Shown here piece after piece: positions 2 to 21,924 of a stretch of 64,000 nt of DNA (its first letter is position 1; each line of letters starts with the position of its first letter). A program made the position numbers and the translations under genes. The notes beneath the pieces were generated by a model. The model was given only the letters and a program-made list of their open reading frames with translations, ran no database searches and had not been told where the DNA came from. The stretch comes from Bacteroidota bacterium (GTDB lineage Bacteria; Bacteroidota; Bacteroidia; AKYH767-A; OLB10), in the NCBI GenBank assembly GCA_016717725.1, contig JADKFA010000001.1:200437-264436 (forward strand), written 5' to 3'.

Positions 2-3000
2 GCTAAAATTGCAGGTGGCGCATCATTAGGATATTCTGCTCCTTCCCTTATCAACAACGGAACAATTGACTTGAGTTTTTTAAGTTATGCCGGTAGCACT
101 GACAATCAGACCATTTTTGGAAATGGAACCATTAGTCAATTGATCACATTCAATAGTAGCTTTGGTATTTACTTAGGTGGCAATTTGACCATTTCTAATA
201 CCCTCAATTTTAATTATGGAAATTTAAATACTGGAATTTACAAAGTAATTATTCAACCTAGTGCAACCATTCAAAACAACTCAGGAACTGATTGGTTTGT
301 TAATGGAAACTTAGAAATGATTTTTCCGGTAGGTTCTTACGGATTAAATTATAGAGTTGGAGATGCCTCTGGATATAGACCTGTTCAATTAACCTTACAA
401 AATAATACTACCCAAGGTGGAGTTGTTGTTTCTACAACCAATACCGAACATCCTGATGTTGCCAATGTAAATATTAATCCTTCGAAAAGTGTAAATCGTT
501 TTTGGACATTTGCGAATAATGGTGTTAGTTTTTCTAATGCTTTTGCAGGATTTAGTTGGGATCCAACAGAACTTGATGCAGGCGTAATTTCTGGAAATTT
601 AATTGTCGGAAAAAAAGACGGCTCTACATGGACATATCCTCAAGTGACTTCTACCTCTTCAACATTTATATCAATAGCTGGAATTTCCTCATTTAGTGAA
701 TTTGCGGTGGGCGAACCACTTGTTTTTACTGATATTGATGTAATAGGAACCTTTGGTCCTTTTTGTTCCGGCGATGCTTTCTCCATTCCATTTACTGCAA
801 CAGGAATATTTAATCCAGGAAATATTTTTACTGCTTACTTAAGTGATGAAAACGGAGGATTTGGTTTGCAAAATGCAATTGGATCAGTTCCAGGTACTGG
901 ATCGGGAATAATTAGTGCTACTCTCCCTCCTTTTATTTCTGGCACTGGATATAGAATTCGAGTTGAAAGTGATAATCCTTCATTTATCAGTGACGATAAT
1001 GGCTCTGATATCATCATTAATCCTAGTATTAATTATTATGCAGATACTGATCAGGATGGATATGGTGATTTGGCAGTAACGCAAACATCATGTATTGGAA
1101 ATCCTCCAGGTTATGTACTTGACAATACAGATTGTGATGATAACAATTCATTAATTTCAACTATCAATCCTATTCTGTTAACTGACGGTGATCCTTTAGT
1201 AAATTGTTTAAATGATAGTCTTGAATTAAGTGTTGCCCAATTAATCGATCAACGATTTGTTTCGGCGGTGATTGATTTCAGTAGCGAAAATCCAGGTGCG
1301 GCATTTTCCTCTGGCCCATTTGCAGCGGATCAAATTATTGGAAGTCCAAATTTTTATCCGAATTATGGAAATAGTTCAGATGCTTGGAATCCCTATTCAG
1401 AAGATGATCAACGAGAATACATTGTTGTTTCATTTACTAATCCTGCCCCAATTAACTTCATCGATATTTATGAGACGAACCATCCAGGATCTGTTGATAC
1501 AGTTTATATCAAAAACCCGAATACACAATTATGGGAAATTGTATATTCAAATACAGCAAGCAGTAATTTAAACAATGCCTACAAATTACACATAAGCTTT
1601 CCACTGACTTTATTTGCTGTTTCTGAAGTGCGGGTTGCTATGAATTCGCCTCTTACAATTGGAAGGAATGAAATTGATGCTATTGGTATTGGAGAAATTG
1701 CACCATTTGCTTTTACTACTTATAGTTGGTCGAACTATTCTACTACACCCACTATATTTGTTACAGCAGCGGGAAACCACAATGTAACAGTTCAATATGG
1801 ATCATGTAATGTAACAAGTAGTGACCTCGCTATTTCCTATAATCCATCAACGCAAGTTCAGTACTTCAACGATTATGATGGAGATGGATATGGAGATCCG
1901 AATTTAAGTTATTATTCCTGCAATCCAATAAATTATTACGTCACCAACAATACAGATTGTGATGATTACAATATTTCAATAAATCCTGGAGCTACTGAAA
2001 TTTGTCAAAACCAAATTGATGACAACTGCGACAATATCGTTGATAATGCCGAATTGCAATTTCCTCCTATGATTACTTATAACGGATCATTAACACTTCC
2101 TTCATGTACTTCGGGCTCTATGGTGTTAGGTGTTGCCGAGGTAACTGATTTACGTTATGCCAGCAGCGTTATAAACTTTAGCAGTGAATATTCTCCATTT
2201 TCATGGTCTGCACAAGCTATTTTAGGCACTCCAAATGTTCCTACATACAATGACGATCCAAATGCTTGGTCTGGCTCAACAGAAAATAATGTAAGAGAAT
2301 TTATTGAGATTGCTTTTGACAATCCAGCACCAATTAACTTTATTAATATACATCAAACTTTTACTCCTGGAAGTATTGATACTGTCTATATTAAAAATCC
2401 AAATACACAATTATTTGAAGTGGTTTATACTAATACAGCTGGACCACAAGAAGGTGTACTAACTGTGTTAAATATTACCTTTCCAACAACATCCTTTAAT
2501 GTTTCGGAAGTAAGATTAGCATTAAATACACCAGCTGCACCAGGATGGAATGAAATAGACGCTGTAGGAATAGGATTATCTGCATCAACTACCTTCGACT
2601 CCTATCTTTGGTCAAATGGATCCTCTTCTAGTACCATTTATGTAAACTCAACCAATGACTATTTTGTTGATGTAACATTAAATGGATGTAGTGCTACGAG
2701 CAATACCGTTTCGGTTACAAATCCCGTCTTAATTGCAGGACAAGAATTTACTGCCAATGCCTGTTTCGGTATGCCATCAACGTTATATGCTTCTCCAAAC
2801 TTTATTAGTTACGTTTGGAGCAACGGAGACAGTACTCAATCAACAGTAATTAATCCTAGCACTGACTCAACTTATTCAGTAATAGCAACCGATTCATATG
2901 GTTGTACCTATGCTGATACCGTTTTTGTTAATTTAGATGATCCATTTGTATTTAGTTATTTAACGATAACCAATGCAGATTGTTTTGGTCAAGTTGGAGG

Positions 3001-6000
3001 TGTTGTTGATGCTGGAACATTTGAAGGCGGCGGTGGTGAAGTTATTCCAGAGGGCATATACGACGATTACAATTTATATGGCAACAACTACGCACAAGGA
3101 AATAACACTGGAATTTTCGAAAATTTAATTCCAGGAACATATACTCTAACCTATAATGACAACGGATGTATTTATGATTCTACTTTTGTTGTTGGCCAAG
3201 ATGCGACTCCAAATGCTACTATAACTTCATCGAGTTTACTATGTCCCGATTTAGGTTCTACTGATTTGAGTGTAGACTCCGTAGCAGGTTCAACATTTTA
3301 TTGGTTACCTGGAAATGAAACTACAAGTACCATTACAATTACCACTCCCGGAACTTATTATGTTGAAGTAATTAACCAGTCTTGCTATGCAACTGATTCA
3401 ATTGTGATTGTACTTGAAACATCGCCTTGCATCATACCCGGATACGAACCTCCTGCAAATGGCGCTGTTCCCAATTTGATTGGCGCTGAACTTTTTCAAT
3501 TAGCGAATGGAACTAATGTTGCAGATACAATTACCGAAAACAATACAGTGTTTTTATTGGATAGTACAGAAGTGTTTATAGAAATAATATGCGAATTCGG
3601 GCAACATGATAGCGTATACGCTTTAATGCAAACGCCTAATTATGGAATGAATAGTTTCATTGACAATGGAGACACTACTTTCATTATTACAGGAATGATT
3701 CCGATTGTTAACTTACCGAAACTAGATTCTCTTCCTTCACTTATTAACTACGTTCGACCTTATTATCCACCACTTGTAAGTAGTCAAGCGGTTGTTAACT
3801 CGATTAACACGGGCTTAACCAAAACCCAAGGTGATAAAGCGATGCGTTCGGACACCGCTAGTTTAGCTTGGGATGTTTATGGTGATGGAATAAAAATTGG
3901 AGTTATATCTGATAGCTACAATACACTTTTCGGAGATCCAGCTGGCACCGATTTATTGAATGGAGATTTACCGGGAGTAGGAAATCCTAATTACACTACA
4001 CCTGTTGAAATAGTTCAAGAATACCCTTATGGAAGAAGAACCGATGAAGGGCGAGCGATGTTACAAATCATACATGACATAGCACCTAAAGCTACCTTAG
4101 CATTTCACACGGGGTTTGTGAGTGCAGGAAATTTTGCGGAGGGAATTGCTGCATTAGATAGTATAGGTTGTGATGTTATTGTTGATGATGTAACTTATAT
4201 AACAGAACCTTTCTTTGACGATGGTGTAGTATCCAAAGCTGTAGATAAGGTGGTAGAAAATGGAACCACCTATATTTCTGCTGCAGGTAATTTTGGTACT
4301 GCTTCTTACGAAGGGATTTTTTCACCTACAGCTGCACCTGCAGGATACACGGGAACAGCTCATAATTTTGGCGGTGGTGATATCTATCAAAATATAAATT
4401 TAAAAGCTGGTACCTATACCATCGCTCTGCAATGGCAAGATTCTATTTATTCATTAGGACAATTGCCTGGAGTAGTAAACGACCTCGATATTTATTTAAT
4501 TGACAATGCTGGCAATCGTTTATTTGGTTTCAACAGAAATAATATTTGGGGAGATCCATTAGAAATTCTTCCCTTCGTTGTGAATGGAAACACGAATGCA
4601 AACATTATGATCACACGTAAATGGGGATCACAAAATGTGAAATTCAAATATGTAATTTTCCGTGGAGATGCAACCATCAATGAATATGCAAATGGTGGAT
4701 CAACTGTAGTTGGACAACCCAATGCAGCAGGTGCTATTGCCGTTGGTGCGGTTTTATATACGAATACACCTGCATTTGGTGTAAGTCAACCATCTGCAGC
4801 TTCATTCTCCTCTAGAGGAGGAGTAGAAGTAAAAGGAGCGGTAAGACAAAAGCCCGATATTATGGCACCGAACGGAGTAAACACGACAGTTTATTTAGGT
4901 GGACAAAATATTGACGGAGATTTATTTCCAAATTTCTTTGGAACATCAGCAGCTGCACCACATATTGCAGCGGTAGCAGCATTACTTCAAGAAGCGAATA
5001 AGAAATTCTCGGGAGTAGAACTCAGCCCTGCACAAATGAAATCGACTTTATTGAATACCACATTGAACATGTATGATCCAGGGTATGATGTAATTTCTGG
5101 ATTTGGATTTGTGCAACCCGACTCTGCCTTAATAACGCTTGGCCGACCACAACCGATTGCACTTAACAGATACTTGCAAGACTCCTTACTTACACCTGGT
5201 GTAGATACTGTTGAAGTATTGGTTGTAGGGAAGTTTATAAGTGAAGATGCAAAAGTTATATTTAGATATGACACTTTACCAACTACTGTTATCAATCAAG
5301 GACTACTCAGTGTAATTATTCCTCCTTTTGTAGGGAATCCACCATTAAGAATATACAATCCGCCTGCTTCTCTTACTGGATTAGATGGTGGTGCTTCTTC
5401 TGATAGCTTATATTTATTGGGGACACAAGCCATCAATGTTGTGATCACAGCGAACAATGCAATCAAGAAATATGGTGAACAATTACCTGCATTTAGTGCT
5501 ACCATTTCGATTGATGGACAGGATCTATCCAGCACTTCACTTACGCTTGCTGATTTAGGATTAGAAAACAACATTACATTTACTAGCTCTGCAACCAGCA
5601 GCAGTAATACTGGATTGTATTTTATACGTCCTGCATCTGATGTTACGAATTTATCATTACCCGCTTCTCAACTCTTAGCTGCTACTTACAACTATCAGTT
5701 TGATGATGGTGTTTTATCGGTACAAAAAATGCCTTTAGTTATAAAACCGAATGATACTACCATTACTTATGGAGATTTAATCGAAAATTTAAACTTCACG
5801 TATACTTATCCGGACGGTATGATAACGCTTTCGGAAAAAGTTGCCTTTGCCAATGAAATTAAAGCAGCTCATGAACTTGATTTAGCCAGTGAGGTTGCCT
5901 TAGTAGATGCACGAGCGTTAGTAAATGGAAGAGCGTTAGTAAATGCGGATATCGATCAATTAAGTTGCATGGCCAGTGCTCGAGCATTAGTAAATGCACG

Positions 6001-8107
6001 TGCACTCGTTAACGCAAGAGCATTGGTGAATGGATCCTATGTATTAGACACAAACCATGTGGTAGATGTTGCAGTAGCTTCTGTATTCAATTACCAAGAT
6101 GATAATGACACCACCGTTTTAGTTAATGCACGAGCGTTAGTAAACGGCAGAGCACTTGTAAATGCACGTGCTCTTGTAAATGGCCGAGCATTGGTGAATG
6201 GAAGAGCGCTTGTTAATGCAAGAGCTTTAGTAAACGGAAGAGCTTTAGTGAATGGTGAAACAGTTGCCGATGAAAATGACGAAGACATGTTTATTATTAT
6301 TGACGAAGATGATATTTCAGCTCCTGTTGACGATTCACTTACTTTCAATTCTATCAATTTAATTACAGGAATGGAAGTGGGAGTACATTCAATTGTTCCA
6401 GGCGCATTACTCAACGAAAACTTCGACATCAGCTATGAATTAGGTGTCCTAACTATTGTTCCTGCTGAATTAACATTTACTGCCGATGATCAATATGTAT
6501 CCTGTGATGGTATTGCAGATCCATTTACTCATACAGTTGAAGGATATCGTTACCAAGATGTAGATAGTAATTTGGTAATTTCAGGACCAACCTATGAAAT
6601 ACTAAATGCATTAAATGTTCCGGTTCCACCAACAGGAATTGCTCCAGGACTTTATTCCATCGTTCCATCGAATGTAAACATGGTACAACCATCAAATTAT
6701 ATTGTAAACTATGTGAATGGCGAAATGATAAGTGGAGCATCTCCTATTGTTCTTGTAACACCAGGACCTGTTGCTATTAGCGGTGGCATAGCTCAAGGAT
6801 GCGTTCCGGGAGTTGCAGGATCTAGAAGCTTCTCCATTCCATCTTTCCCTGAAGCTGATACTTATTTATGGACTGTTCCTACAGGTTGTACCATTACAGC
6901 TGGACAAGGAACCAACTCCATTGTAATAAGCTGGACCAATGTGGCTATACAAAATGGAATCGCGGGAAATATTTGCGTGAAGGGAGTGGATTCATGTGCT
7001 GAGAGTGTTTCGGCTTGTTTACCGCTCGAATTTCAAGTGGCAGCTCCCGTAACCCCACCTTCTATCTCTGGACCAAGTAAAAACTGTTCTGGCGATGTTG
7101 CAACCTATAGCATTGCTAATGTTGCACGAGCATCGAGTTATATTTGGAGTCCGCCAGCAGGTGTACAAATAGTAAGTGGACAAGGAACCAATATTATCAC
7201 TGCTCAATTCTTATCCAATTATGCTGGTGGGTCATTAACCGTAAAAGGTTCTAATATTTGTGGAGATAGTCCAGTTCGTATTAAGACACTTACTCTAAAC
7301 GTTCCTTCTGCACCGAGTGTAATATCAGGAGCTGCATCTGGCCTTTGCAATTTGAATGATGTTGTTTATACCATCACTCCAATTGTTGGTGCAACTTCAT
7401 ATAGTTGGAATGCTGGAGCAGGAACTATTGTGTCGGGAGCAGGATCCAATTCTATCCATGTAAATTTTGGTAATTTCACTACTAGTAGTATCTCTGTAAA
7501 AGCAATAAACAACTGCGGAGAAAGCACCACTCGTATCTTGAATATTACAGGAAAACCTGCCATTGCGAGTCCTATTTCGGGTATCAGCAATTTAATTTGC
7601 ACAAACAGTGTTGGCAACTATAGTGTTGCAACCGTAACAGGTGCATCCAGCTACAATTGGTCAACCTCTACGGGAGGAAGTGTTACGGCTGGTCAAGGCA
7701 CTAAAAATGTTACTATACAATGGTCAAATATTGCTTATGTAAATCAAAGTGTATCTGTAACCACAACGAACAGTTGCGGAACGAGTCCAATACGAACTTA
7801 CTCAGGAATTACCATGTACAATTGTGCTAAGATCGATGACGATGCTACAAGTTTGCAATTATTAGTTTATCCAAATCCTACTCAAGAAATTGTAAATGTG
7901 CAATTCTATGCAGAGAAAGAAGGTGAATATATCATACGTTTGGTTGACAACATTGGTCGTACATTAATTACTAAAACTGGAAATGCTATTAACGGTGTAA
8001 ATACGGCGATAGTAAATACCGATGGGTTTGCAAAAGGAGTTTATCATGTAAGCATTGTGATGAATGAAAAACAGCAGCAGATTATCTTGTTAAGAAGAAA
8101 GAATTAA
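2..8107 (+). CDS. Giant secreted multidomain surface protein, 5'-partial (the reading frame is open from base 2; the first in-window start, TTG at 71, is probably internal). It contains MopE-like Cys/Asp-rich metal-binding motifs (DCDDYNISINPGATEICQNQIDDNCDN), SprB-like repeat (GTYTLTYNDNGC), a central subtilisin-like S8 peptidase module (GTSAAAPHIAAVAALL), two blocks of [A/G]RALVN hexapeptide repeats, PKD-like repeats (SYxW...GQGTNxI) and a C-terminal T9SS sorting domain (LLVYPNPTQEIVNVQFYAEKEGEYIIRLVDNIGR...)
   Basis: ORF track 71..8107, with sense codons and no stop from position 2 upstream. The S8 active-site serine motif GTSAAAP and the T9SS C-terminal domain consensus were recognised by eye. 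Confidence 0.8.
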   Translation, partial: AKIAGGASLGYSAPSLINNGTIDLSFLSYAGSTDNQTIFGNGTISQLITFNSSFGIYLGGNLTISNTLNFNYGNLNTGIYKVIIQPSATIQNNSGTDWFVNGNLEMIFPVGSYGLNYRVGDASGYRPVQLTLQNNTTQGGVVVSTTNTEHPDVANVNINPSKSVNRFWTFANNGVSFSNAFAGFSWDPTELDAGVISGNLIVGKKDGSTWTYPQVTSTSSTFISIAGISSFSEFAVGEPLVFTDIDVIGTFGPFCSGDAFSIPFTATGIFNPGNIFTAYLSDENGGFGLQNAIGSVPGTGSGIISATLPPFISGTGYRIRVESDNPSFISDDNGSDIIINPSINYYADTDQDGYGDLAVTQTSCIGNPPGYVLDNTDCDDNNSLISTINPILLTDGDPLVNCLNDSLELSVAQLIDQRFVSAVIDFSSENPGAAFSSGPFAADQIIGSPNFYPNYGNSSDAWNPYSEDDQREYIVVSFTNPAPINFIDIYETNHPGSVDTVYIKNPNTQLWEIVYSNTASSNLNNAYKLHISFPLTLFAVSEVRVAMNSPLTIGRNEIDAIGIGEIAPFAFTTYSWSNYSTTPTIFVTAAGNHNVTVQYGSCNVTSSDLAISYNPSTQVQYFNDYDGDGYGDPNLSYYSCNPINYYVTNNTDCDDYNISINPGATEICQNQIDDNCDNIVDNAELQFPPMITYNGSLTLPSCTSGSMVLGVAEVTDLRYASSVINFSSEYSPFSWSAQAILGTPNVPTYNDDPNAWSGSTENNVREFIEIAFDNPAPINFINIHQTFTPGSIDTVYIKNPNTQLFEVVYTNTAGPQEGVLTVLNITFPTTSFNVSEVRLALNTPAAPGWNEIDAVGIGLSASTTFDSYLWSNGSSSSTIYVNSTNDYFVDVTLNGCSATSNTVSVTNPVLIAGQEFTANACFGMPSTLYASPNFISYVWSNGDSTQSTVINPSTDSTYSVIATDSYGCTYADTVFVNLDDPFVFSYLTITNADCFGQVGGVVDAGTFEGGGGEVIPEGIYDDYNLYGNNYAQGNNTGIFENLIPGTYTLTYNDNGCIYDSTFVVGQDATPNATITSSSLLCPDLGSTDLSVDSVAGSTFYWLPGNETTSTITITTPGTYYVEVINQSCYATDSIVIVLETSPCIIPGYEPPANGAVPNLIGAELFQLANGTNVADTITENNTVFLLDSTEVFIEIICEFGQHDSVYALMQTPNYGMNSFIDNGDTTFIITGMIPIVNLPKLDSLPSLINYVRPYYPPLVSSQAVVNSINTGLTKTQGDKAMRSDTASLAWDVYGDGIKIGVISDSYNTLFGDPAGTDLLNGDLPGVGNPNYTTPVEIVQEYPYGRRTDEGRAMLQIIHDIAPKATLAFHTGFVSAGNFAEGIAALDSIGCDVIVDDVTYITEPFFDDGVVSKAVDKVVENGTTYISAAGNFGTASYEGIFSPTAAPAGYTGTAHNFGGGDIYQNINLKAGTYTIALQWQDSIYSLGQLPGVVNDLDIYLIDNAGNRLFGFNRNNIWGDPLEILPFVVNGNTNANIMITRKWGSQNVKFKYVIFRGDATINEYANGGSTVVGQPNAAGAIAVGAVLYTNTPAFGVSQPSAASFSSRGGVEVKGAVRQKPDIMAPNGVNTTVYLGGQNIDGDLFPNFFGTSAAAPHIAAVAALLQEANKKFSGVELSPAQMKSTLLNTTLNMYDPGYDVISGFGFVQPDSALITLGRPQPIALNRYLQDSLLTPGVDTVEVLVVGKFISEDAKVIFRYDTLPTTVINQGLLSVIIPPFVGNPPLRIYNPPASLTGLDGGASSDSLYLLGTQAINVVITANNAIKKYGEQLPAFSATISIDGQDLSSTSLTLADLGLENNITFTSSATSSSNTGLYFIRPASDVTNLSLPASQLLAATYNYQFDDGVLSVQKMPLVIKPNDTTITYGDLIENLNFTYTYPDGMITLSEKVAFANEIKAAHELDLASEVALVDARALVNGRALVNADIDQLSCMASARALVNARALVNARALVNGSYVLDTNHVVDVAVASVFNYQDDNDTTVLVNARALVNGRALVNARALVNGRALVNGRALVNARALVNGRALVNGETVADENDEDMFIIIDEDDISAPVDDSLTFNSINLITGMEVGVHSIVPGALLNENFDISYELGVLTIVPAELTFTADDQYVSCDGIADPFTHTVEGYRYQDVDSNLVISGPTYEILNALNVPVPPTGIAPGLYSIVPSNVNMVQPSNYIVNYVNGEMISGASPIVLVTPGPVAISGGIAQGCVPGVAGSRSFSIPSFPEADTYLWTVPTGCTITAGQGTNSIVISWTNVAIQNGIAGNICVKGVDSCAESVSACLPLEFQVAAPVTPPSISGPSKNCSGDVATYSIANVARASSYIWSPPAGVQIVSGQGTNIITAQFLSNYAGGSLTVKGSNICGDSPVRIKTLTLNVPSAPSVISGAASGLCNLNDVVYTITPIVGATSYSWNAGAGTIVSGAGSNSIHVNFGNFTTSSISVKAINNCGESTTRILNITGKPAIASPISGISNLICTNSVGNYSVATVTGASSYNWSTSTGGSVTAGQGTKNVTIQWSNIAYVNQSVSVTTTNSCGTSPIRTYSGITMYNCAKIDDDATSLQLLVYPNPTQEIVNVQFYAEKEGEYIIRLVDNIGRTLITKTGNAINGVNTAIVNTDGFAKGVYHVSIVMNEKQQQIILLRRKN
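5906..6258 (+). repeat. In-frame 18-nt tandem repeat (GCN CGN GCN YTN GTN AAY) inside the giant CDS, encoding ARALVN/GRALVN hexapeptides in blocks of 2, 3 and 7 or 8 copies. Third codon positions are degenerate, so the protein repeat is conserved rather than the DNA.
   Basis: Read directly from the sequence and the translation VDARALVNGRALVNADID...ARALVNARALVNARALVNG...NARALVNGRALVNARALVNGRALVNGRALVNARALVNGRALVNGETV. Confidence 0.9.
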
Positions 8108-8135
8108 GAATTAAGAATTAAGAATTAAGAATTAA
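8101..8135. repeat. (GAATTAA)x5 heptanucleotide tandem repeat. The TAA stop of the giant gene lies inside the first unit.
   Basis: gaattaagaattaagaattaagaattaagaattaa read directly. Confidence 0.95.
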
Positions 8136-8173
8136 GCCCTGAAGCAGAGTAAACACGCTTCAGGGCTTTTTTT
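8136..8173 (+). terminator. Rho-independent terminator hairpin (gccctgaagc-N11-gcttcagggc) followed by T7.
   Basis: Perfect 10-bp inverted repeat plus a T run immediately after the repeat and stop; it sits between convergent genes. Confidence 0.85.
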
Positions 8174-8179
8174 GTGGAC

Positions 8180-9081
8180 TTATTTTTTCCATGATTGCAC
8201 GGCTCGATCATCACCTGCAGAAAGCAGTGTTCCGTCATCCAACCACAATAATTTATTAACTGAGTTGATATGTCCTTTTCCATCATTACCTTCTAGTCTT
8301 TCCAACACAGAAAGTGAATTGTAATCCCATATCTTTACCGATTTATCTCTACTGGCTGTAGCAAAATAATTTCCAGTAGGATCAAAAGCAATATCATAAA
8401 TGGCGTAATTGTGCGCAGGAATAGATGAGATCAATTCATAGTTGTTCAACTGAAAAATATTTAAATGTGCATCTCTCGATCCGCTTAATAATTTTGTTTC
8501 ATCGGGCGACAAACACAGTGCATTTACAGAAAAATCCAAACCATGAGCTTGAAAACGATGTGTTATTTCAAGTAATGGCAATGACAATTCAACAATACTT
8601 CCATCTCCACAACCGATAAAGACTTTATCCTGCCGATTATTGATTACAATTGCTCTCAACTTTTTTTCACTCAGTCGAATTCGTTGAATCACTTCAAAGC
8701 TTTGATCGCTTAGAATACATAGAATTCCATCTCCACCCAACGTAAAAATTAAATTATGTTTAATACTTGACAGTAAACCAAACAGGGCTTGATCATGCAA
8801 CTTTAATAATCGTTCTTCTTTGTTTTCTGTTAAATCAATGATGTGTACGCCACCGTTACCTTGTCCGATGAGCAATCGATTTTGCTCTGGCAGAAAATGC
8901 ATACAATAAATAGAATCGGTTGCTTTTGCAATCAAATTCCCATCACCGGGATGATGGAGGTTCCATTGAGCGACAATCTTATCTCCCGCACCACTATAAA
9001 AATACCCTCACCTTGACCTTTTACAAGCGCATAAATGGAACCCTGATGACCGGCAAAACGATGTTGAAACTGTAGATGCAT
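8180..9081 (-). CDS. WD40-repeat protein, about 300 aa. The N-terminal 28 codons (MHLQFQHRFAGHQGSIYALVKGQGEGIF, ATG at 9081) are in a different frame from the 8180..8935 ORF. One extra A in the A5 run at 9003-9007 would fuse them (GIF-YSGAGDKIVAQWNL...).
   Basis: WD dipeptides and the repeat architecture (KIWDY, QSWKK, FAGHQGSIYAL); manual three-frame reading across 8935-9081. Confidence 0.7.
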
Positions 9082-9220: not shown

Positions 9221-10981
9221 ATGAAAAAAACACTACTAACCCTTTTAATGTTCTTCATTGCGATTTATTCCAATGCACAAAACTGCCCATCGCCATCAGC
9301 ACAAATTGATCTTGATGTTAACAATGTCAGAGCAAAAATATTGAATGGCGGCGACCTTTGGTGGAACCCAACCACTCAGATAAATACTTATGAGGTTCCT
9401 ATAGGAAGTTCAAAAAACGCTCTTTTTTGTGGCAGCATTTGGATAGGTGGTTTTGATGCTAGTAATCAACTTTTGACGGCGGCTCAAACGTATAGACAAG
9501 CTGGTGCAAACGATTTTTGGGCTGGACCTATTAGTGTTGCTCCAGGATCAGGGAATCTTTCTATCGCTCCTGCAACTTGCACTTTATACAACAACTTATT
9601 TGCGATTACAAAAGCAGAAATAAACACTTTTGTTACTTTCGGAATTGCATCTTCAGGTATCGTTAGTTGGCCAGGTAACGGTAATGTATCGGCAGGGCAA
9701 CTACCCTTTTTAGCCCCATTTTTTGATGCCAACAATGATGGAATATATAACCACACTTCTGGAGATTATCCTTATTTTAATTTGAGCGGCAATTATCCTG
9801 TGAATCAAACTACAGGTTTAACGGAATGCAATGATTATTTATTCGGAGATAAATCCATTTGGTGGGTATTCAATGATATTGGAAATGTAAAAACAGAAAC
9901 CAACAGCGGTCCGATCGGTTTGGAAATTCGTGCACAAGCTTTTGCTTATAGTGCTACCAATTCTGCTATTAACAATACTACTTTTTACAAATATCAAATC
10001 ATCAATCGCAGCAGCGGAACCTTATTTCAAACGCATCTTGGATCATGGGTTGATGCTGATTTGGGAAATGCTTCTGATGATTATGTTGGATGTGATGTTG
10101 GTCGCGATTTAGGCTATGTTTATAATGGAGATCCGGATGATGATGGAGGTGGAGGTTATGGAATAAACCCTCCTGCCTGTGGTCTTGATTTTTTGCAAGG
10201 ACCACTTGCTGATGCAAATGATGGCATCGATAATAATCACAATGGAATTACCGATGAGTTAGGAGAGGTTTGTTTAATGTCATCATTTATGTATTACAAT
10301 AATGTTAACGGCACACCAACTGGAAATCCCAATAACACACTTGACTATTATAATTACTTGAAATCAATTTGGATTGATGGTACTCCTGTAACTTATGGTG
10401 GAGATGGAAGAGGTTCTGGTACTGGAGCTACTACAACACCAACCACATTTATGTATCCCAATAATACGAATCCCTTATTTCCTACACCATGGACGATGGG
10501 CAATTCTGGTACCCAAGCGAACGACATGCGTTTTATTGTCAGTTCAGGCCCCTTCACCATGCAGCCTGGAGAAGTTTGTTATATGACTAATGCTGTAGTT
10601 TGGGCAAGAACAACTGTATCTGGCAATCCCTTACCGTCCGTTTCAGAATTACAAGCTGCATCCGATGTAGTTCAATTGTTTTTTGATAGTTGTTTTAAAT
10701 TCTCAGCAATAAGTGGTATTAATAATCATGAAGAAATTTCAGGAGTAAAGATTTCTCCTAATCCATTTAAAACAAGCTGTACTATTCATCTTGAACAGAC
10801 CAACCTAAAAAGTGCTGAAATTAGTTTGCATACAGTAGCCGGAAAACTAATCTCACTATCAAAATATAATCAAGTACCAGACGTCATCAACCTTGGCGAT
10901 GACCTAAAAGCCGGTGTTTATATTATCAACATTCGAGAAGGAAGTCGCATTTACGCTGAGAAAATTATCAAGTTAGAGTAA
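9221..10981 (+). CDS. Secreted hypothetical protein with an N-terminal signal peptide (MKKTLLTLLMFFIAIYSNAQ), Asp/Gly-rich Ca-binding-like segments and a C-terminal T9SS sorting domain.
   Basis: ORF track; signal peptide and C-terminal domain motif (KISPNPFKTSCTIHLEQ...GVYIINIREGSRIYAEKIIKLE). Confidence 0.7.
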   Translation: MKKTLLTLLMFFIAIYSNAQNCPSPSAQIDLDVNNVRAKILNGGDLWWNPTTQINTYEVPIGSSKNALFCGSIWIGGFDASNQLLTAAQTYRQAGANDFWAGPISVAPGSGNLSIAPATCTLYNNLFAITKAEINTFVTFGIASSGIVSWPGNGNVSAGQLPFLAPFFDANNDGIYNHTSGDYPYFNLSGNYPVNQTTGLTECNDYLFGDKSIWWVFNDIGNVKTETNSGPIGLEIRAQAFAYSATNSAINNTTFYKYQIINRSSGTLFQTHLGSWVDADLGNASDDYVGCDVGRDLGYVYNGDPDDDGGGGYGINPPACGLDFLQGPLADANDGIDNNHNGITDELGEVCLMSSFMYYNNVNGTPTGNPNNTLDYYNYLKSIWIDGTPVTYGGDGRGSGTGATTTPTTFMYPNNTNPLFPTPWTMGNSGTQANDMRFIVSSGPFTMQPGEVCYMTNAVVWARTTVSGNPLPSVSELQAASDVVQLFFDSCFKFSAISGINNHEEISGVKISPNPFKTSCTIHLEQTNLKSAEISLHTVAGKLISLSKYNQVPDVINLGDDLKAGVYIINIREGSRIYAEKIIKLE

Positions 10982-11066: not shown

Positions 11067-11925
11067 ATGAAGCCTGAGGTAAAAAAATATAATTAGCAGT
11101 TTCATTCCGGGTACACTATTCGTTGGACTTTTAAGTCTGATTAAGTATTATGAAGTTTCACAGCAGGTCAGCTTTTCTACGTATGGTGTTTTCCCACGGT
11201 CGTTAGATGCGATCACGGGTATTTTAACTTTTCCGTTAGTACACAAAGACTACGATCATCTTTTCTCCAATGCGGTACCGTTATTTGTCTTGATGGGCAT
11301 GTTAAACTATTTCTACAAGGACATGGCTGGCAAAGTATTTTTATATTTATGGGTCATTGGAGGTGCTTGGCTCTGGATAGGCGGTCGACCTTCGTTTCAT
11401 ATTGGAGCTAGCGGACTGGTTTATGGATTAGCATCCTTTATTTTTTTTAGCGGGATCTGGAGAAAGTGGAGAAGCATGTTAGCGGTGAGTATGATTATCG
11501 TTTTCCTTTATGGAAGTATGATATGGGGAATTTTTCCTTGGTTCAAAGAAACGAGTTGGGAAGGGCATTTGTTTGGTGGATTAGCTGGGCTATTATTATC
11601 ATGGGTGTATCGGAAAGAGGGTCCGCAAAGGCCGAAATTTGTTTGGGAAGATGAGATTGAGGATAATAAAATTTATGATGAAGAGGGGAATGAAATTGAT
11701 TTGAAAATTAATCAATTTGAAGATTTGAAAATGGAAGATGATTTGAAGATGGATCAATTTGAAAATTTGAAAATGAGTGATGACCTCACTTTTGAGGAAA
11801 CTGGTTTGAAAATAGTTGATAATTCTCCTAAAACAGAGACCCCTCCACAAATTTTATATACTTATGTGGAGAAGAACCCAAAATTGAACACGGATGACGC
11901 AGATGAAACGGATAAAATAGGATAA
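11067..11925 (+). CDS. Rhomboid-family intramembrane serine protease with a C-terminal acidic repeat tail (QFEDLKMEDDLKMDQFENLKMSDDL). The rhomboid frame (HxxxxHLxxN ... GASGLVYGL ... GHLFGGLAGLL) is open from 11086 with no ATG before 11293. An ATG at 11067 joins it if the A7 run at 11081-11087 is read as A6.
   Basis: Rhomboid motifs LVHKDYDHLFSNAVPLF, HIGASGLVYG and EGHLFGGLAG; manual frame analysis upstream of the 11290 ORF. Confidence 0.65.
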
Positions 11926-12582: not shown

Positions 12583-14734
12583 TTAATCGTGTTGAATGAT
12601 CAATTTATTTAATAATGAAGTTTCGCCGAATGCTTTGAGGAAATAGCAACCATTTGGATAATTTAGTGTAGAGAAATTCAATACTGATTCGCCTTCTTTA
12701 ACATCAAATCTAGAAATCACTTGTCCTGTTAAATTCATTAGATCGATTTGGTGAATCTTGCTTGATGGAGGAATTGAAACAAAAACCATGTTGCTTGTTG
12801 GATTCGGGTAAATCAATAACTCTTGTTCCGAAACTTCATTTAATACAGTTGTCAACGACGAAATGGTAATACTAAAAGGGGAGGTGCAGTTCTCGACAGA
12901 ATCTGTAACTGTTGCAGAAAAATACAAGGAAGATGTAGATAAAGGAACGCTAATTTGAAATTGAGCATAGCCTGAAGCATCCGTTACAAAACCAACTGTA
13001 TCTAGAAATGTTTCTCCTTCGCCAAAACCTGAACTATCAGGAATTGAATTTGTAAATATTTCCGCGATGTATTTAGTTAGAGGCTGGCTACTTAGATGAC
13101 CGTACAAATTTCCATTTATTGATCCATAAACGACAGAATCAAGAACCGCAACAGGAATTACAGGGTTGGCGTATCCATTATTAAAATCTGTTGTTACAAT
13201 TCCTCTTAATCCATTTCCATAGATACTATTTCTTCTAAAATTAACACCGCGCATATTCCACATATAATTATCTACATTAATTCCTGATAACGAATTATTA
13301 TAAATAGAATTTTCATGAATTGAAATATTACTTATGTTATTCATTGCAGTAGAAAAACCTACTCCATTTATTATAATACCGCCAGAAATATTATTATAAA
13401 TTTCATTGCTTCGGATAAAAATATTAGAGACGGAACCAGAAATAGATGAAGGGCTTATCCCAAATTCAATTCCAGATAAATTTCCGTTACTAACAACATT
13501 ACTATCAATTGCAACATTCGAAACACTATAGCTAAAAAAACCTGTAGCATAAATATGTGTATAGATTCCAAAATTGCAATTATCTATTGTATTATTTTGA
13601 ACATATACTGTGTCCATGTCAACTTGACAATTACCAGTTCCACCCAATGAAAAATGAATTCCAATATTGCAAGACTGAATATTATTATTTTTTATAGACA
13701 ATTGATACAATTTCAAATTATCAACACCAGTACCTCCTACATTAATAAATATAGCCTCATTATTTAAATTAGAAATTTGGTTGTTAGAAATTTCAACATT
13801 AGCAATCTTGCTATCTAGTGAACCACCACCCAAATTGACTTGAATTGCTCGACTTGTATTAGAAGCACTAAACTGATTTCCTCGTACTGCTACATCATCA
13901 ATAGAAGTTCGAATCGAACCAACATTATTAATGAATATTGACAAATTTCCTATATTAATAAAACTATTGCTATCCAACTCAATATTACTACCAAAGCCAC
14001 CTAGCCCGACAATTAATGCAGTACCGAAATTTGAAAAAGAATTTCCAACAAAAGAAACCCCAGACCAGGGCAATGTATCAGATGGTATTACCTCAAATAC
14101 AACTGCAATTCCTAAACCACTAGTACCAATAAAAACATTATCCCTAAAAGAAAAATTAGAAGATTCAGAATATGATTGAATATACAATCCGTCCACTGAA
14201 TTCTCTATTCTATTATTACTAAAAATAAAATTATTAAATTTTCCATTATTAAGATTAACACATAACGTCCAATTAGTAAATTTGCTATTATGTATAGTTA
14301 CATTATTAAGCGAAGAACTGAATGACATTGGACTCAAATTAACCGCATTGCTATTGCCATTTCCAGTATCAAAATGAAGTCCACGCAAGGTGGTTCCCGA
14401 AGTTGTAATATTTAAGGCAGTCGGATTTGAAAGTACAAGTAACTTTAATCAAATTATTAGGGTACGAACTACCAGGCTGACTCAACCCATCTATCCAAAC
14501 AGTATCAATAATTGTTGGAAGCGTACTAGAAAGGGTAATATTCCAACTTCCTGCACCTGGCAAACTAAATAAAATAGTGTCTATTCCAGGAGATGCATTT
14601 GCATCTACAATTGATTGCCTCAAAGAACCAGGACCAATACCAGCCGTATTACTAACTACAAAACTAGAACTATAAAGCTTAATTGGAATGCTTAGTAAAA
14701 CAAAGCAAAAGATTAAAACAACATTACGTTTCAT
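12583..14734 (-). CDS. Right-handed parallel beta-helix repeat protein with a signal peptide (MKRNVVLIFCFVLLSIPIKLYSS) and a T9SS C-terminal domain. The two ORFs 14369..14734 and 12583..14388 are joined by a single frameshift near 14400-14430.
   Basis: Repetitive N/G/I-rich beta-helix rungs, a C-terminal domain (LLIYPNPTSNMVFVSI...GCYFLKAFGETSLLNKLIIQHD), overlapping ORFs in different frames and three-frame reading. Confidence 0.65.
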
Positions 14735-15687: not shown

Positions 15688-18600
15688 CTAATACTTCAGC
15701 ATCTTCAAGACCTTACTTTCATTGTCACATCTCAATTCAATAAAATAAATTCCATTTGCAAAAGTCTCCGCAACTACTTCCACACGGTTACTACCGTAAT
15801 GTGGTATTAACTGAATTGGATTGCCTACTATTCTTCCGGAAAGATCCAGCACTCGAATCGACATTTTATCTGTGCCATTTCCCTTCCAATTAAATAAAAT
15901 GGTGCTTAACGATTTAGTTGGATTTGGAAACAAGCGAACTCCATCCATCAATGATAACTCTTCTACCGATGTATTTACAATGGTGATAGTTCCGCCATTG
16001 GTTGTAAACGGCATGGCAGTAGAAATAGGATCAAATGCTTGGTAGGGATTAATATTTACATTCACTGTGGGATTACCGCTATAACCTGCATTCACCACAA
16101 AACTCACATCCGCTACTTCTCCAAAGCCAGTTACGCCAGTTCCATCTTTTCGCGCCATGCTGATTGCAGCAACTCCAGTACTCTCATCCATATTTGCAAA
16201 TAAAATACAGTTGGTATCTGGACACATCCAATTGTTAACATACGTTACCACAAATGTGTTAGGCACAATTAAAGATGGTGGGATTTCTAATTTAAATCCA
16301 AGCGCACCAATATCATTCACCATTAATCCTGATGTACCTGCCATCAATTTTAAATGAACAGTATCACCACCCGTAAAAGTAGTTCCAACAGGAAATATAC
16401 TCAAATCGGGTCCAACAGAAATACTTTGTACTTGTGGGTTTGCAGCAGGGTGCGACATTCCATAATTATTAAAAATGGCGACGGTATCTAATAAATTAAT
16501 GAGTCCATCTCCATTACAATCTACATGATTCATGTTCGTTCCATTGCCTTGTTGTTTATTCCAAAGCAAGGAGGGCTGTGAAACCCATGCATCCGATAAA
16601 GTAGGACGAGAAGTATAGTACTTATTAAAGTTCAAACCAACTTGTAAAATATCAAAATTATCGACGCTCTTCGTACTGTCACAATCGCCTGGCCATACTG
16701 AAGACAATAGTGTAGCTACACTAAACTCATCAGCACCAATAGTTGGAGTTGTTACACTTCTAATCTCACCATCCATATCGGTAGTAATTCCAGCAAACGG
16801 AACTCCTGGCATTGCCACTGCATTCAGCAAATGCATATCAGACAACGTACGGAACGACGCCGTCACAGAATCTGATTGCAAGTCGAGACCTGAGAATGCT
16901 TTCCAAGTGCCTAAGTCATAATCAACATTGTCATTAATTATTTTGATGGGAACTCCGTTAGAAATATAACGATTATGATTCATTTCAATAAAATCTATTT
17001 CATCGTAAGAATCGATTGCAAAGGAGCTATTAGAACGAACGACATTATTATTGAAGCGGAAAGTAGGCGCATTCATACCTCCACCAATGGCAACTCCATT
17101 ACCAAAACTATTATGAATAATATCTAGATTCAGTCCAGAGAGAGTAGCGGACTCAAAGGGCAACCAGGAAGGTTGGTAACCGACGCTATTATTATAAACT
17201 AAACATGGTGATACTGTTTGACAATCACATCCAGTTAAATAGAGAGAAGCACCACCCCATACTTCGGAGCTGATCAAATTATTCTTCACTACAAAAGAAT
17301 CACATTGAAACATATGTAAACTTGTTCCTCCGGATCCTGCAGAAGAAATATATCGAATTTTATTTCCATCTCCCAACAATCGTTTCAACCCCGATAATTG
17401 GATCTCATTTGTTTGCCATAACTCGTTACGCAAAACAAAAACATCATATCCCCCAGTAGTTACATAATTCATTTCAATTCCAACTTCCCCTCCATCAATA
17501 AAATTGTCAGCAATTACCACATTATTCATAATTCCTACCATCACAATTGCTTGTGCTACACTACCCGCCGAATTGGATCGCTTTGGCGCATGTATAACAT
17601 TATTCAATATTCTTATTCTCGAACTTGCGTTAACAGAAATAGAAGCTCTGCATCCATGATCCAATTGCATGGCATCAAATGGAGCAGCAGAGGTATTCTG
17701 AATTGTCATATTTTCGAAACTACAATAATGCGCTCTGTTTAAACGAATCGTATTTCGGTAATAGTTTATATTATTAGCAGCGAAGTCAAGTACCACAGAT
17801 TCTTTAATTCCATTCGCCGATGTCCAAACGATGGAATCAGTAGAGGAAGAAAATGGAATTGAATCAACAGTAAGTTGTTCATAGTACGTACCAGGAACAA
17901 CAGCAATTTTAACAGGTTCGGAAACACCGCATCGCTTCAATGTTTTTGAAGAAGACATGAACGTATCAAAATAACAAGTGTCACATCCTAATGAATAAGT
18001 ACCACTTAATGGAGCAGAGCAAACAATTTGCGACAACTTTACAGTGTCGTTGCCTTGCTGATTATCGGTACTACCATTCACTTGATTTACCCAAACTTTA
18101 ACGTGATTATACGAGCGATTAAAATTATAGGCTGTCAATAAAATACTATCGGAAGCACCTGTACTTAAATTACCATTCCATGCAAAATTTTGAATCGCGT
18201 TATTGTTGATTTGATAACGAATATCCATTGCTGTTATTGGCAAGGATGCATTATTCATAATTTTTACGAATAGATTTCTATTGCTAGGTCCATTAATGGT
18301 GGTATCGCTAATGCTCAGTGAAAGGGCCGAAGCATCCAGGCTATTTGGATCATAAGCAGCGTAACAACTAGGCGAACAATTATTGTTCATAGACAAAGTA
18401 GAAACAATAAAGCTATACCCAACAGGGATTCCACCTTTAAACAACGAATGATAATTTCCACATACATCTTGACGGCTGTCGATGATTGGATAAAAATTAA
18501 CATTATCACCATATTGAAATGCTCCAGTAGCACTAAATCGTAACATGTATGAACCTATGGAAGCTGCTGGAGACACATTATAAGCTTGATTTAGTGCATC

Positions 18601-21747: not shown

Positions 21748-21924
21748 GATTTTGGTTTTGGTATGGTGAAGGTAGGGAAAAAGTTGTTTTGTTAAAGCCA
21801 AGAAAAATCAAGACCATATAAACAAAAATGCCCTCCGTCAAGACTTCGCTAAAGCTTTGTCTTGCGAAGCGCTAAAGCTATGGAGGATAAAAAAAGCCCT
21901 CCTTCGCCATAAAGTAGAAACTGC

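Follow-up and report, generated by a model that had tools for sequence, protein, structure and literature searches.

A hexapeptide array at the core of a putative insert splitting an MBG domain in an S8 peptidase protein of Bacteroidota

Several described systems share features with the hexapeptide array reported here. MBG domains of the YGX type (PF18676) are ordinarily ~72 residues long with a single copy of a G-[FL]-V-N-G-[DE] motif, and no functional study of the MBG domain was found in literature searches. Subtilases are known with non-catalytic C-terminal accessory domains, namely the P-domain of kexin and furin and the C-terminal domain of KP-43, which follow the catalytic domain at a fixed position and are co-conserved with it. 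KP-43 is reportedly discussed as T9SS cargo in one paper (PMC11982257). Multi-copy peptide precursors of the kexin type, such as yeast alpha-factor with Kex2 and the fungal repeat precursors, hold identical short peptides of lineage-specific sequence in one polypeptide, with synonymous divergence between the copies and an association with an S8 protease. In periscope-type proteins, the repeats are whole domains of nearly identical DNA, and their number varies between strains. Left-handed beta-helix (LbH) hexapeptide repeats (PF00132; YdcK-type solenoids) have a six-residue period, an aliphatic residue with a small residue four positions on, and an Asn/Gly turn. Highly similar folded domains varying in number are described for periscope-type proteins in one account, in which MBG_2 is among the listed families (10.1101/2020.12.24.424174).

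The array lies in a giant ORF at one end of the window, by which we mean the whole 64,000-nucleotide stretch of DNA analysed and to which all positions refer. The T9SS content and the relatives mark the source as a member of Bacteroidota. Frame 2 is stop-free from window base 2, and the protein is therefore truncated at the window start; the secreted host protein comprises ~2,700 residues within the window, with Pfam matches to Peptidase_S8, MBG_2, PKD_6 (four times) and Por_Secre_tail, as well as a match to TIGR04183. The features are:

2-8107, + strand: giant ORF encoding T9SS cargo; domains are S8 peptidase, MBG, PKD-like and C-terminal sorting (Pfam, translation)
3887-5140, + strand: S8 peptidase domain (PF00082, 62.1 bits against a cut-off of 21.8; profile positions 158-288 only)
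5441-5641, + strand: ordinary MBG (YGX) domain, upstream of the module (MBG_2, 23.2 bits, slightly below the cut-off of 25)
5729-5818, + strand: N-terminal half of the split MBG domain (MPLVIKPNDTTITYGD...YPDG); the spliced halves match MBG_2
5819-6328, + strand: 170-residue insert, made up of a helix, three blocks of repeats plus conserved spacers, and an acidic beta-strand (alignments, AlphaFold)
5828-5878, + strand: predicted long helix LSEKVAFANEIKAAHEL, which opens the insert (DSSP helix 34-50, pLDDT ~90; also in the P0010 model)
5891-5944, + strand: block 1, EVALVD (degenerate), ARALVN, GRALVN (sequence reading)
5978-6067, + strand: block 2, ARALVN three times, then degenerate GSYVLD and TNHVVD (sequence reading)
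6110-6271, + strand: block 3, TTVLVN, seven units A,G,A,G,G,A,G-RALVN, then GETVAD (sequence reading)
6269-6313, + strand: acidic tail with a predicted buried strand (DENDEDMFIIIDEDD; strand 187-192 in the AlphaFold model)
6335-6466, + strand: C-terminal half of the split MBG domain (MBG_2 profile positions 37-72)
7865-8077, + strand: T9SS type A C-terminal sorting domain (PF18962, 33.6 bits, cut-off 27; TIGR04183, 25.2 bits, cut-off 23)

The S8 domain starts with a putative Asp motif, GVISDS, and carries the catalytic-Ser motif FFGTSAAAPH at 4934-4963, which is unchanged in 9 homologues. The domain order S8, MBG, module, C-terminal domain is common to 5 full-length homologues.

Sequence reading confirms 12 exact [AG]RALVN units in the frame of the giant ORF, two at 5909-5944, three at 5978-6031 and seven at 6128-6253. 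Together with five degenerate units in register (EVALVD at 5891-5908, GSYVLD and TNHVVD at 6032-6067, TTVLVN at 6110-6127, and GETVAD at 6254-6271), they span 5891-6271. The count of about 13 copies in three blocks given in the initial annotation is thus accurate, since the exact units are flanked by in-register degenerate ones. The blocks themselves are out of register with one another, with offsets of 5 and 8 residues; the Gly of the second unit in block 1 is kept family-wide in the alignment, and the block 2 segment is ~24 aa in most homologues. The array had been placed between the S8 module and an acidic stretch. It lies instead inside an MBG-type domain ~250 residues past the S8 Ser, and the acidic stretch, although present, is not a separate flank but belongs to the same insert.

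On either side of the array stands one half of an MBG (YGX) domain. When the insert is left in place, MBG_2 matches only at profile positions 37-72 with 20 bits; when it is excised in silico, the match rises to 32.3 bits over profile positions 1-72 (cut-off 25), and to 38.9 bits when one unit, the final LVNGE, is kept. The insertion point is the exact site of G-[FL]-V-N-G-[DE] in ordinary MBG domains. Among 530 motifs of canonical MBG_2 domains in the same protein set, 404 have N third after the leading Gly, and FVNGD or LVNGD accounts for 254. The YG motif of the split domain is TITYGD and the last unit reads ALVNGE; it is evident that the unit ends share a hydrophobic-hydrophobic-Asn(-Gly) core, PhiVN(G), with the motif of the ordinary domain, and that the last unit is the native MBG motif. 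Further ordinary MBG domains occur in the host proteins. Unlike these, the split domain has ~170 residues added at the motif, which comprise a helix, an acidic strand and three blocks that together contain 12-17 reiterated units, and the insert lies outside the coverage of the Pfam MBG model. Scans of the segment at E<=10 against Pfam, which the initial annotation had proposed, and against NCBIfam gave noise and sub-threshold LbH matches only, with none above threshold; the module profile found no match among PDB sequences at E<=1, and a literature search with the unit strings returned one irrelevant match. By sequence, the array is the core of a previously undescribed ~170-aa insert dividing the MBG domain.

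Structure prediction, also proposed at the outset, gave two AlphaFold models (pLDDT 80.7 and 81.9, pTM 0.80 and 0.82) with an identical order of secondary-structure elements. In these models, the units are predicted to be non-equivalent, contributing short strands and helices of one turn to a compact alpha/beta fold, of which the leading helix, the acidic strand and the conserved spacers are predicted to be part as well. Identical hexapeptides take different conformations in the models, which could be an artefact of ambiguous repeat alignment, and in the window model confidence falls to a pLDDT of 45-56 over the final units of block 3. In the acidic tail, D195 is invariant in the alignment. 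The number of basic residues in the units correlates with that of acidic residues in the tail (rho 0.64-0.68; rho 0.64, p=4e-7, with no phylogenetic correction), and a weaker charge correlation is also seen in a control region (rho 0.41). Burial, exposure and contacts we infer, because the models gave pLDDT and secondary structure only.

At the DNA level, the copies are strongly diverged. Tandem Repeats Finder reports periods of 18, 36 and 54 nt with matches of only 69-86%, the longest exact DNA word recurring in the array is 19 nt, and all 12 exact units are distinct DNA versions. Over 66 copy pairs, there are 218 synonymous and 35 non-synonymous codon differences, and all of the latter are the A/G choice at unit position 1. 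The RALVN parts share a mean nucleotide identity of 0.747; the value expected from independent random synonymous encodings with window codon usage is 0.740 ± 0.019, and no DNA-level repeat signal remains in this test. Synonymous saturation extends to 21 orthologous loci; in one example, SRAIVN is present in 16 exact copies, each with its own DNA version. The earlier preference for selection on the peptide over recent slippage holds, the copies being at full synonymous saturation: the array is ancient and has been retained by selection.

A match to the module is seen in 1653 representative clusters at E<1e-3 and in 82 at E<1e-30; among the best 150 matches, at least 60 clusters at 50% identity carry the insert, and an insert-only HMM covers >=70% of it in 60 of 152 proteins. 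Where Bacteroidota loci carry a close S8 relative, the module is present; none was detected in S8 relatives from outside Bacteroidota. One cultured carrier is Flavihumibacter soli (L005). Segment lengths of the module are kept across lineages. Other lineages have uniform units of their own, such as SRAIVN, TRGIVN and GKIVTN, or 8-residue variants such as GQAVTIVN, and in some lineages the units are degenerate (P0008, P0010). Across 84 modules, the modal core spacing is 6 in 37, 7 in 9, 8 in 15 and 11-12 in 14.

Three orthologues (L087, L088 and L090), 67-72% identical overall and 43-54% at third positions, have the same unit number (2/3/7 layout) and the same A/G pattern as the window. Because the A/G choice is conserved per position, the units are not equivalent. 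In these orthologues, all 72 array residues are unchanged, while 25 of the 188 other module residues differ (p=2.6e-4), and the insert is 97-98% identical whereas the S8 domain is 87-92% identical; in these alignments, the array stretch is the most conserved part of the protein. Recent transfer was excluded as the cause of this conservation, since the orthologous copies show a nucleotide identity of 0.755 and 43-46% identity at third positions. The locus resembles periscope-type proteins in being a giant bacterial surface protein with MBG_2 domains and tandem repetition; however, each of its units has only 6 residues, and the units are scrambled in their DNA and constant in number across the three orthologues. 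The array is a natural case of repeats that stay identical without DNA homogenisation. Units that are uniform and frozen here, together with a different uniform unit in other lineages, point to a strong constraint demanding uniformity, whose source could be a stacking structure, a multivalent partner or the protease.

The module stands 240-268 aa past the S8 catalytic Ser motif in 26 of the 28 representative clusters measured. In a second count, the Ser motif is upstream of the module in 43 of 46 proteins, and one of the three exceptions, P0068, has a variant, FFGTSCAAPH, that falls outside the search pattern. The S8 subfamily partnered with the module consists of T9SS-secreted Bacteroidota proteins. 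We give a little better than an even chance to the explanation, including the roles proposed below, in which the array forms the core of an insert not described before, nested in an MBG domain that is an obligate partner of this S8 subfamily. The array may have arisen by reiteration of the PhiVNG strand-turn motif of the MBG domain. In each unit, the two hydrophobic residues would be buried, Asn/Gly would form a turn, and positions 1-3 (A/G-R-A) would be exposed; the exposed residues might then make up a regular, arginine-rich face that is charge-matched by the acidic tail. Such a face would be an accessory surface of the neighbouring protease, for binding of substrate or partner or for regulation, rather than a spacer, and the function of the array would be that of a structural accessory or interaction surface. 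This recalls the accessory domains of kexin/furin and KP-43, to which no similarity of the module in sequence or fold was detected; here, the catalytic domain and the module are separated by an IPT-like segment and an MBG domain, and those accessory domains are without a repeat-built insert. A purely structural role does not readily explain why the exposed positions 1-3 are identical in all copies and differ as a set between lineages, and also why the array is conserved above the catalytic domain. The module is sizeable and unannotated, is present in several Bacteroidota groups and is coupled to an S8 subfamily of T9SS cargo that is itself poorly characterised. Its evolution is unusual in combining uniform peptide repeats, scrambled DNA, a frozen number and pattern, and conservation above the catalytic domain. 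For structural and biochemical studies of the giant surface proteases of Bacteroidota, the module is a concrete target.

A different role would follow if the units were recognised by the adjoining S8 peptidase, as a tethered substrate, as a pseudo-substrate gating the active site or as hexapeptides to be released, which we regard as rather unlikely. The array is obligately in cis with an S8 peptidase whose Ser motif is invariant, A-R-A-L resembles the P4-P1 residues of a subtilisin substrate, and units that are identical within a protein and lineage-specific, despite saturated DNA copies, would be expected from co-evolution with one recognising site. If so, a lineage-specific peptide ladder co-evolving with the S8 domain, which would gate it until arrival at the surface or serve as an in-cis hexapeptide precursor, would explain both why the units change jointly between lineages despite their long-independent DNA and why the array is conserved above the catalytic domain; we put this at no better than an outside chance. 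The units abut without spacers or dibasic sites, and are set between conserved elements predicted to be folded, in three blocks of fixed size, with AlphaFold placing blocks 1 and 2 in a confident fold. Moreover, the position-specific Ala/Gly pattern marks the units as non-equivalent, and they are degenerate in P0008 and P0010. In other lineages, a beta-branched residue (I or V), unfavourable for subtilases, is frequent at the would-be P1 position. Compared with kexin-processed precursors, the protease here is part of the polypeptide that carries the units, spacers and dibasic sites are absent, and the units are inside a predicted folded domain with their number and Ala/Gly pattern locked by position.

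It also seems improbable that the arrays of several chains pair with each other, as a triple beta-helix or a cross-beta stack, and so oligomerise the giant protein at the cell surface. In-register stacking is easier with uniform units, prediction of the monomer is poor over the later units of block 3, 8-residue variants such as GQAVTIVN recall octapeptide triple beta-helices, and extreme conservation fits an interface. However, blocks 1 and 2 are predicted within a monomeric globular fold, and unit periods from 6 to 12 in one family argue against a fixed inter-chain geometry.

The initial annotation noted a loose resemblance to left-handed beta-helix repeats, as in acyltransferases and YdcK-like solenoids, and a fold of this kind is in our estimate very unlikely. 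V-N-[AG]-R-A-L agrees with the Hexapep pattern used for comparison ([LIV]-[GAED]-X2-[STAV]-X) at positions i and i+4, though it has Asn at i+1; weak sub-threshold LbH matches were obtained (YdcK_fam, 18.9 bits with a threshold of 350; PaaY, 13.5 bits with a threshold of 319.6); GRALVNG words are shared with a true LbH-type protein (P0004); and the best period in Tandem Repeats Finder, 54 nt, equals one 18-residue turn. In contrast to LbH repeats, the module gives no profile match at threshold (none to PF00132 in the segment even at E<=10), its blocks are out of register, and the strict 6-residue period (18 per turn) is kept neither among the homologues nor across the window array. Neither AlphaFold model contains a triangular parallel beta-helix. 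The original interpretation is supported in part; the selection on the peptide stands.

The reading of the array as recent DNA slippage, or as a low-complexity, length-variable spacer with no sequence-specific role, might appeal for a tandem short-period array in a giant surface protein that has more copies in a few lineages (L003, L018), but it is already contradicted by the synonymous saturation of 12 distinct DNA versions, by saturated orthologues that keep an identical copy number and pattern, and by the array region being the best-conserved stretch of the protein, and we give it almost no weight. An antisense ORF at 6091-6429 is not open to the same extent in L088, and was rejected as a gene; it is a by-product of the stop-free antisense reading of the repeat codons.

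The [AG]RALVN hexapeptide array lies in a giant open reading frame (ORF) on the + strand that contains no stop from base 2 of the window until the stop codon at 8105-8107. Since the frame is already open at the window's first base, the window truncates the protein, whose N-terminus lies outside; ORF calling starts it at the first TTG, 71, with window 2-70 upstream also open, and the orthologous ORF piece in the metagenomic locus L088 is at least 2714 aa long. A Pfam search of the whole ORF identified a Peptidase_S8 domain, one MBG_2 domain (PF18676, YGX type), four PKD-like domains and a T9SS C-terminal sorting domain (CTD). The S8 catalytic serine motif is FFGTSAAAPH, and the array lies ~250 residues downstream of it. 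The S8 domain (3887-5140) is atypical, its Pfam alignment covering profile positions 158-288 only; the SAAGNFG motif and the serine motif are about 220 residues apart, and the nearest solved structures (8jmw and 3lpa) align around the serine only (E about 2e-5). This S8 subfamily appears structurally uncharacterised. In the N-terminal part (window about 1000-2100, ORF residues about 330-680), two similar segments each carry a D-x-D-G-Y-G-D ... C-D-D-x-N motif, one of them a match to Pfam Cu-binding_MopE. After this motif, both segments continue into a region of ~200 residues that includes nearly identical stretches (NPAPINFIDIYET / NPAPINFINIHQT), and the pair looks like an internal duplication.

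The giant ORF holds 12 exact units in total, located within a longer insert as follows:

5819-6328, + strand, insert of 170 residues: the array with a leading helix, two conserved spacers and an acidic strand
5909-5944, + strand, block 1, 2 exact [AG]RALVN units
5978-6031, + strand, block 2, 3 exact [AG]RALVN units
6128-6253, + strand, block 3, 7 exact [AG]RALVN units

Degenerate in-register units (EVALVD, GSYVLD, TNHVVD, TTVLVN and GETVAD) flank the exact ones, and the repeat array described in the initial annotation is confirmed in this form, in three groups. All 12 copies differ in DNA. Over the 66 copy pairs there are 218 synonymous and 35 non-synonymous codon differences, and each of these 35 is an exchange between Ala and Gly at unit position 1. 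Across the RALVN parts, nucleotide identity averages 0.747, versus 0.740 ± 0.019 in simulated independent synonymous encodings that drew on the window's own codon usage. The copies are thus at complete synonymous saturation with five of six residues invariant, which lends quantitative support to the earlier proposal of peptide-level selection rather than recent slippage. In each of the 21 loci tested, nearly every exact peptide copy has its own DNA version (mean identity 0.71-0.88). Recent DNA slippage is excluded by the synonymous saturation and by the equal copy number in orthologues. An antisense ORF overlapping block 3 (6091-6429, - strand, 112 aa, product …FTKALPFTKALALTSALPFTNARPFTRARAFT…) is a stop-free reverse-strand reading of the repeat codons; it was rejected as a gene, the longest open antisense stretch being 96 codons in L088 versus 113 in the window.

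The sequence before the array (PLVIKPNDTTITYGD...) and that after the acidic stretch (...GVHSIVPGALLNENFDISYELGVLTIVPA) resemble two halves of another MBG domain. In the intact segment, the Pfam MBG_2 match is limited to profile positions 37-72, 3' of the array. When the insert is excised in silico between ...YPDG and DDSLTF..., the match extends over the full profile (1-72) at 32.3 bits (cut-off 25), and the score rises to 38.9 bits if one unit (RALVNGETVA) is kept; the equivalent excision in one homologue likewise works. The retrieved proteins supplied 530 canonical MBG domains; at the insertion point their motif is G-[FL]-V-N-G-[DE], in the form FVNGD in 200 cases and LVNGD in 54. This motif is the same as the invariant core of the repeat unit: a hydrophobic residue, Val/Ile, Asn and often Gly. 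The sequence of the last unit is ALVNGE. Given the excision scores and this shared core, the array is best described as a reiterated native MBG strand-turn motif: the PhiVNG motif (Phi, hydrophobic residue), from which the array would be derived, may have been reiterated and then elaborated into the 170-residue insert. No Pfam, NCBIfam or PDB-sequence-set entry covers the insert, and no description of the insert and its repeat was found in the libraries and literature searched. The S8, MBG and T9SS CTD host domains are already known; what appears to be new is an MBG domain interrupted by an insert built from repeats, with an unusual evolutionary signature.

A profile of the module (the split MBG domain with its insert) was run with HMMER against the full set of 1.84 billion representatives; 1653 matched at E<1e-3, 82 of them at E<1e-30, and in many of the top 150 a single alignment stretch spans the whole 270-residue module. 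Of 152 retrieved proteins, 60 align with an insert-only profile over 70% or more of the insert. In five full-length homologues the S8 peptidase is followed by MBG, module, in some a further MBG, and T9SS sorting domain. The serine motif lies 240-268 residues 5' of the module in 26 of the 28 proteins with enough upstream sequence, and a second count found it in 43 of 46 proteins; of the other three, P0068 has the motif in a variant form overlooked by the search pattern. The link between the module and the S8 peptidase is tight. In a genome scan seeded with the S8 C-terminus, the module profile matches 27 of 80 loci (L003-L030 minus three, plus L046 and L072), and the three module-less loci among the top ones (L020, L022 and L025) stop <700 nt past the S8 match. 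L001 and L002, outside the 80 scanned loci, also carry the module. Module-bearing loci are all Bacteroidota (Chitinophagaceae, Sphingobacteriales, Flavobacteriales, Saprospiraceae and Cytophagales-like); among the 80 loci, the profile has no match in cyanobacterial, planctomycete, proteobacterial and other S8 relatives or in more distant Bacteroidota paralogues. Source labels of the module proteins are 'hypothetical protein' or 'S8 family serine peptidase' only. In the metagenome contigs L001 and L002, the orthologous giant gene is split among several called genes, with runs of X in the former and many short gene calls in the latter, so the database entries P0001 and P0003 are fragments, not small proteins.

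The three-block layout is conserved family-wide, with spacers D-L-x-N-L...S and D-T-T-x-V-V-D...F-N-Y-Q. In most lineages block 2 has about 24 residues and block 3 has 58-65, which indicates that the 2/3/7 layout in the window is near the family norm and not an expansion. The unit sequence differs by lineage and is often perfectly uniform inside one protein.

Repeat units in different lineages
6 residues: SRAIVN, A/GRAIVN, TRGIVN, GRAVAN, TKQAVN, SRALAN
6 residues, further: PRVVTN, GRTLIN, SIPLVN, QRGLVN, GKIVTN, xSLVNG
7 residues: GGHGIVN, KLRAAIN
8 residues: GQAVTIVN, GQLxALVN
11-12 residues: GSGATSRALVN

The modal core spacing is 6 in just 37 of 84 modules, and the conserved element of the repeat is the PhiPhiN core, not the period. 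In two loci (L012 and L019) and four database proteins (P0003 of L002, P0052, P0035 and P0113), longer units of 8 residues (GQAVTIVN, NGQLxALV) or 11-12 residues (GSGATSRALVN, GGTGTTRRALVN) occupy the same three positions as the hexapeptides.

Three closer orthologues (L087, L088 and L090), recovered by a degenerate DNA pattern scan of metagenomes, share 67-72% identity with the window protein over about 2000 residues, and their third codon positions are 43-54% identical. Their arrays equal the window's in copy number and Ala/Gly pattern (AG|AAA|AGAGGAG). In these orthologues, 0 of 72 array residues have changed versus 25 of 188 elsewhere in the module (p = 2.6e-4, Fisher's exact test). In 60-residue windows, the insert is the most conserved stretch of the whole protein (97-98%), the S8 domain being 87-92% and the N- and C-terminal parts 40-60% conserved. 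Recent transfer as the source of this conservation is excluded because orthologous array copies share only 0.755 nucleotide identity. Family-wide, particular units have one invariant Gly and near-invariant Arg and Asn, which, together with the conserved Ala/Gly pattern, shows that one unit cannot stand in for another. In the best-supported reading, purifying selection on the array is very strong and acts position by position.

AlphaFold2 models of the window module (28-sequence alignment; pLDDT 80.7, pTM 0.80) and of a 43%-identical homologue with degenerate units (pLDDT 81.9, pTM 0.82) agree in the order of their helices and strands. Confidence is high (pLDDT about 90) for blocks 1 and 2 as well as for the spacers, helix and acidic strand; later block 3 units are weak in the window model (pLDDT 45-56) but better in the homologue model (82-88 over the first four units). 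The likeness to a left-handed beta-helix suggested in the initial annotation fails four of its tests. P0004, an unrelated 255-aa protein with true hexapeptides of this type (…ALVNGEAHVGGRALVNGDAHVGG…), was retrieved only via shared GRALVNG words and shows that the unit sequence alone is beta-helix-compatible in another context.

The 12 arginines of the window array are followed by about 11 acidic residues in the DENDEDMFIIIDEDD...DD tail. Without correction for phylogeny, basic residues in the units correlate with acidic residues in the tail across 52-53 modules (rho 0.64-0.68, p about 1e-7), more strongly than unit basicity does with the head region (rho 0.41, likewise uncorrected); the correlation with the C-terminal MBG half is not significant (rho 0.24). 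Tails average 3.8 acidic residues with uncharged units versus 7.5 with basic units. There is thus a hint that the array's putatively exposed face and the acidic tail are charge-matched.

The best-supported reading of the array is a structural repeat at the heart of an accessory domain that sits inside an MBG domain and is coupled to the S8 peptidase, and we prefer a role in which it would offer the protease a regular, charge-matched interaction or regulatory surface. A plain scaffold role does not explain why the putatively exposed positions are uniform inside one protein yet replaced as a set from lineage to lineage, nor why conservation exceeds that of the catalytic domain. The same two features keep alive the idea that the protease reads the array as a ladder of substrates or pseudo-substrates, which we consider improbable, and that of an inter-chain assembly element, to which we give an equally small chance.

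Within 8090-8170, about 6.7 tandem copies of a 7-nt unit (AATTAAG/TTAAGAA) begin in the giant ORF's final codons and continue beyond its stop. Directly 3' of it, a GC-rich hairpin with a T-run (gccctgaagc...gcttcagggcttttttt) looks like an intrinsic terminator. Three further T9SS-CTD ORFs lie beside the giant gene at 9221-10981 (+), 12583-14388 (-) and 15688-21801 (-), one with a right-handed beta-helix region and one of 2037 aa, and together with it they constitute a T9SS cargo gene cluster. The first small cargo gene is flanked by a WD40-repeat ORF (8180-8935, -) and a rhomboid-family ORF (11290-11925, +), the latter with a 42-nt tandem repeat of 2.3 copies at its 3' end (11689-11783).
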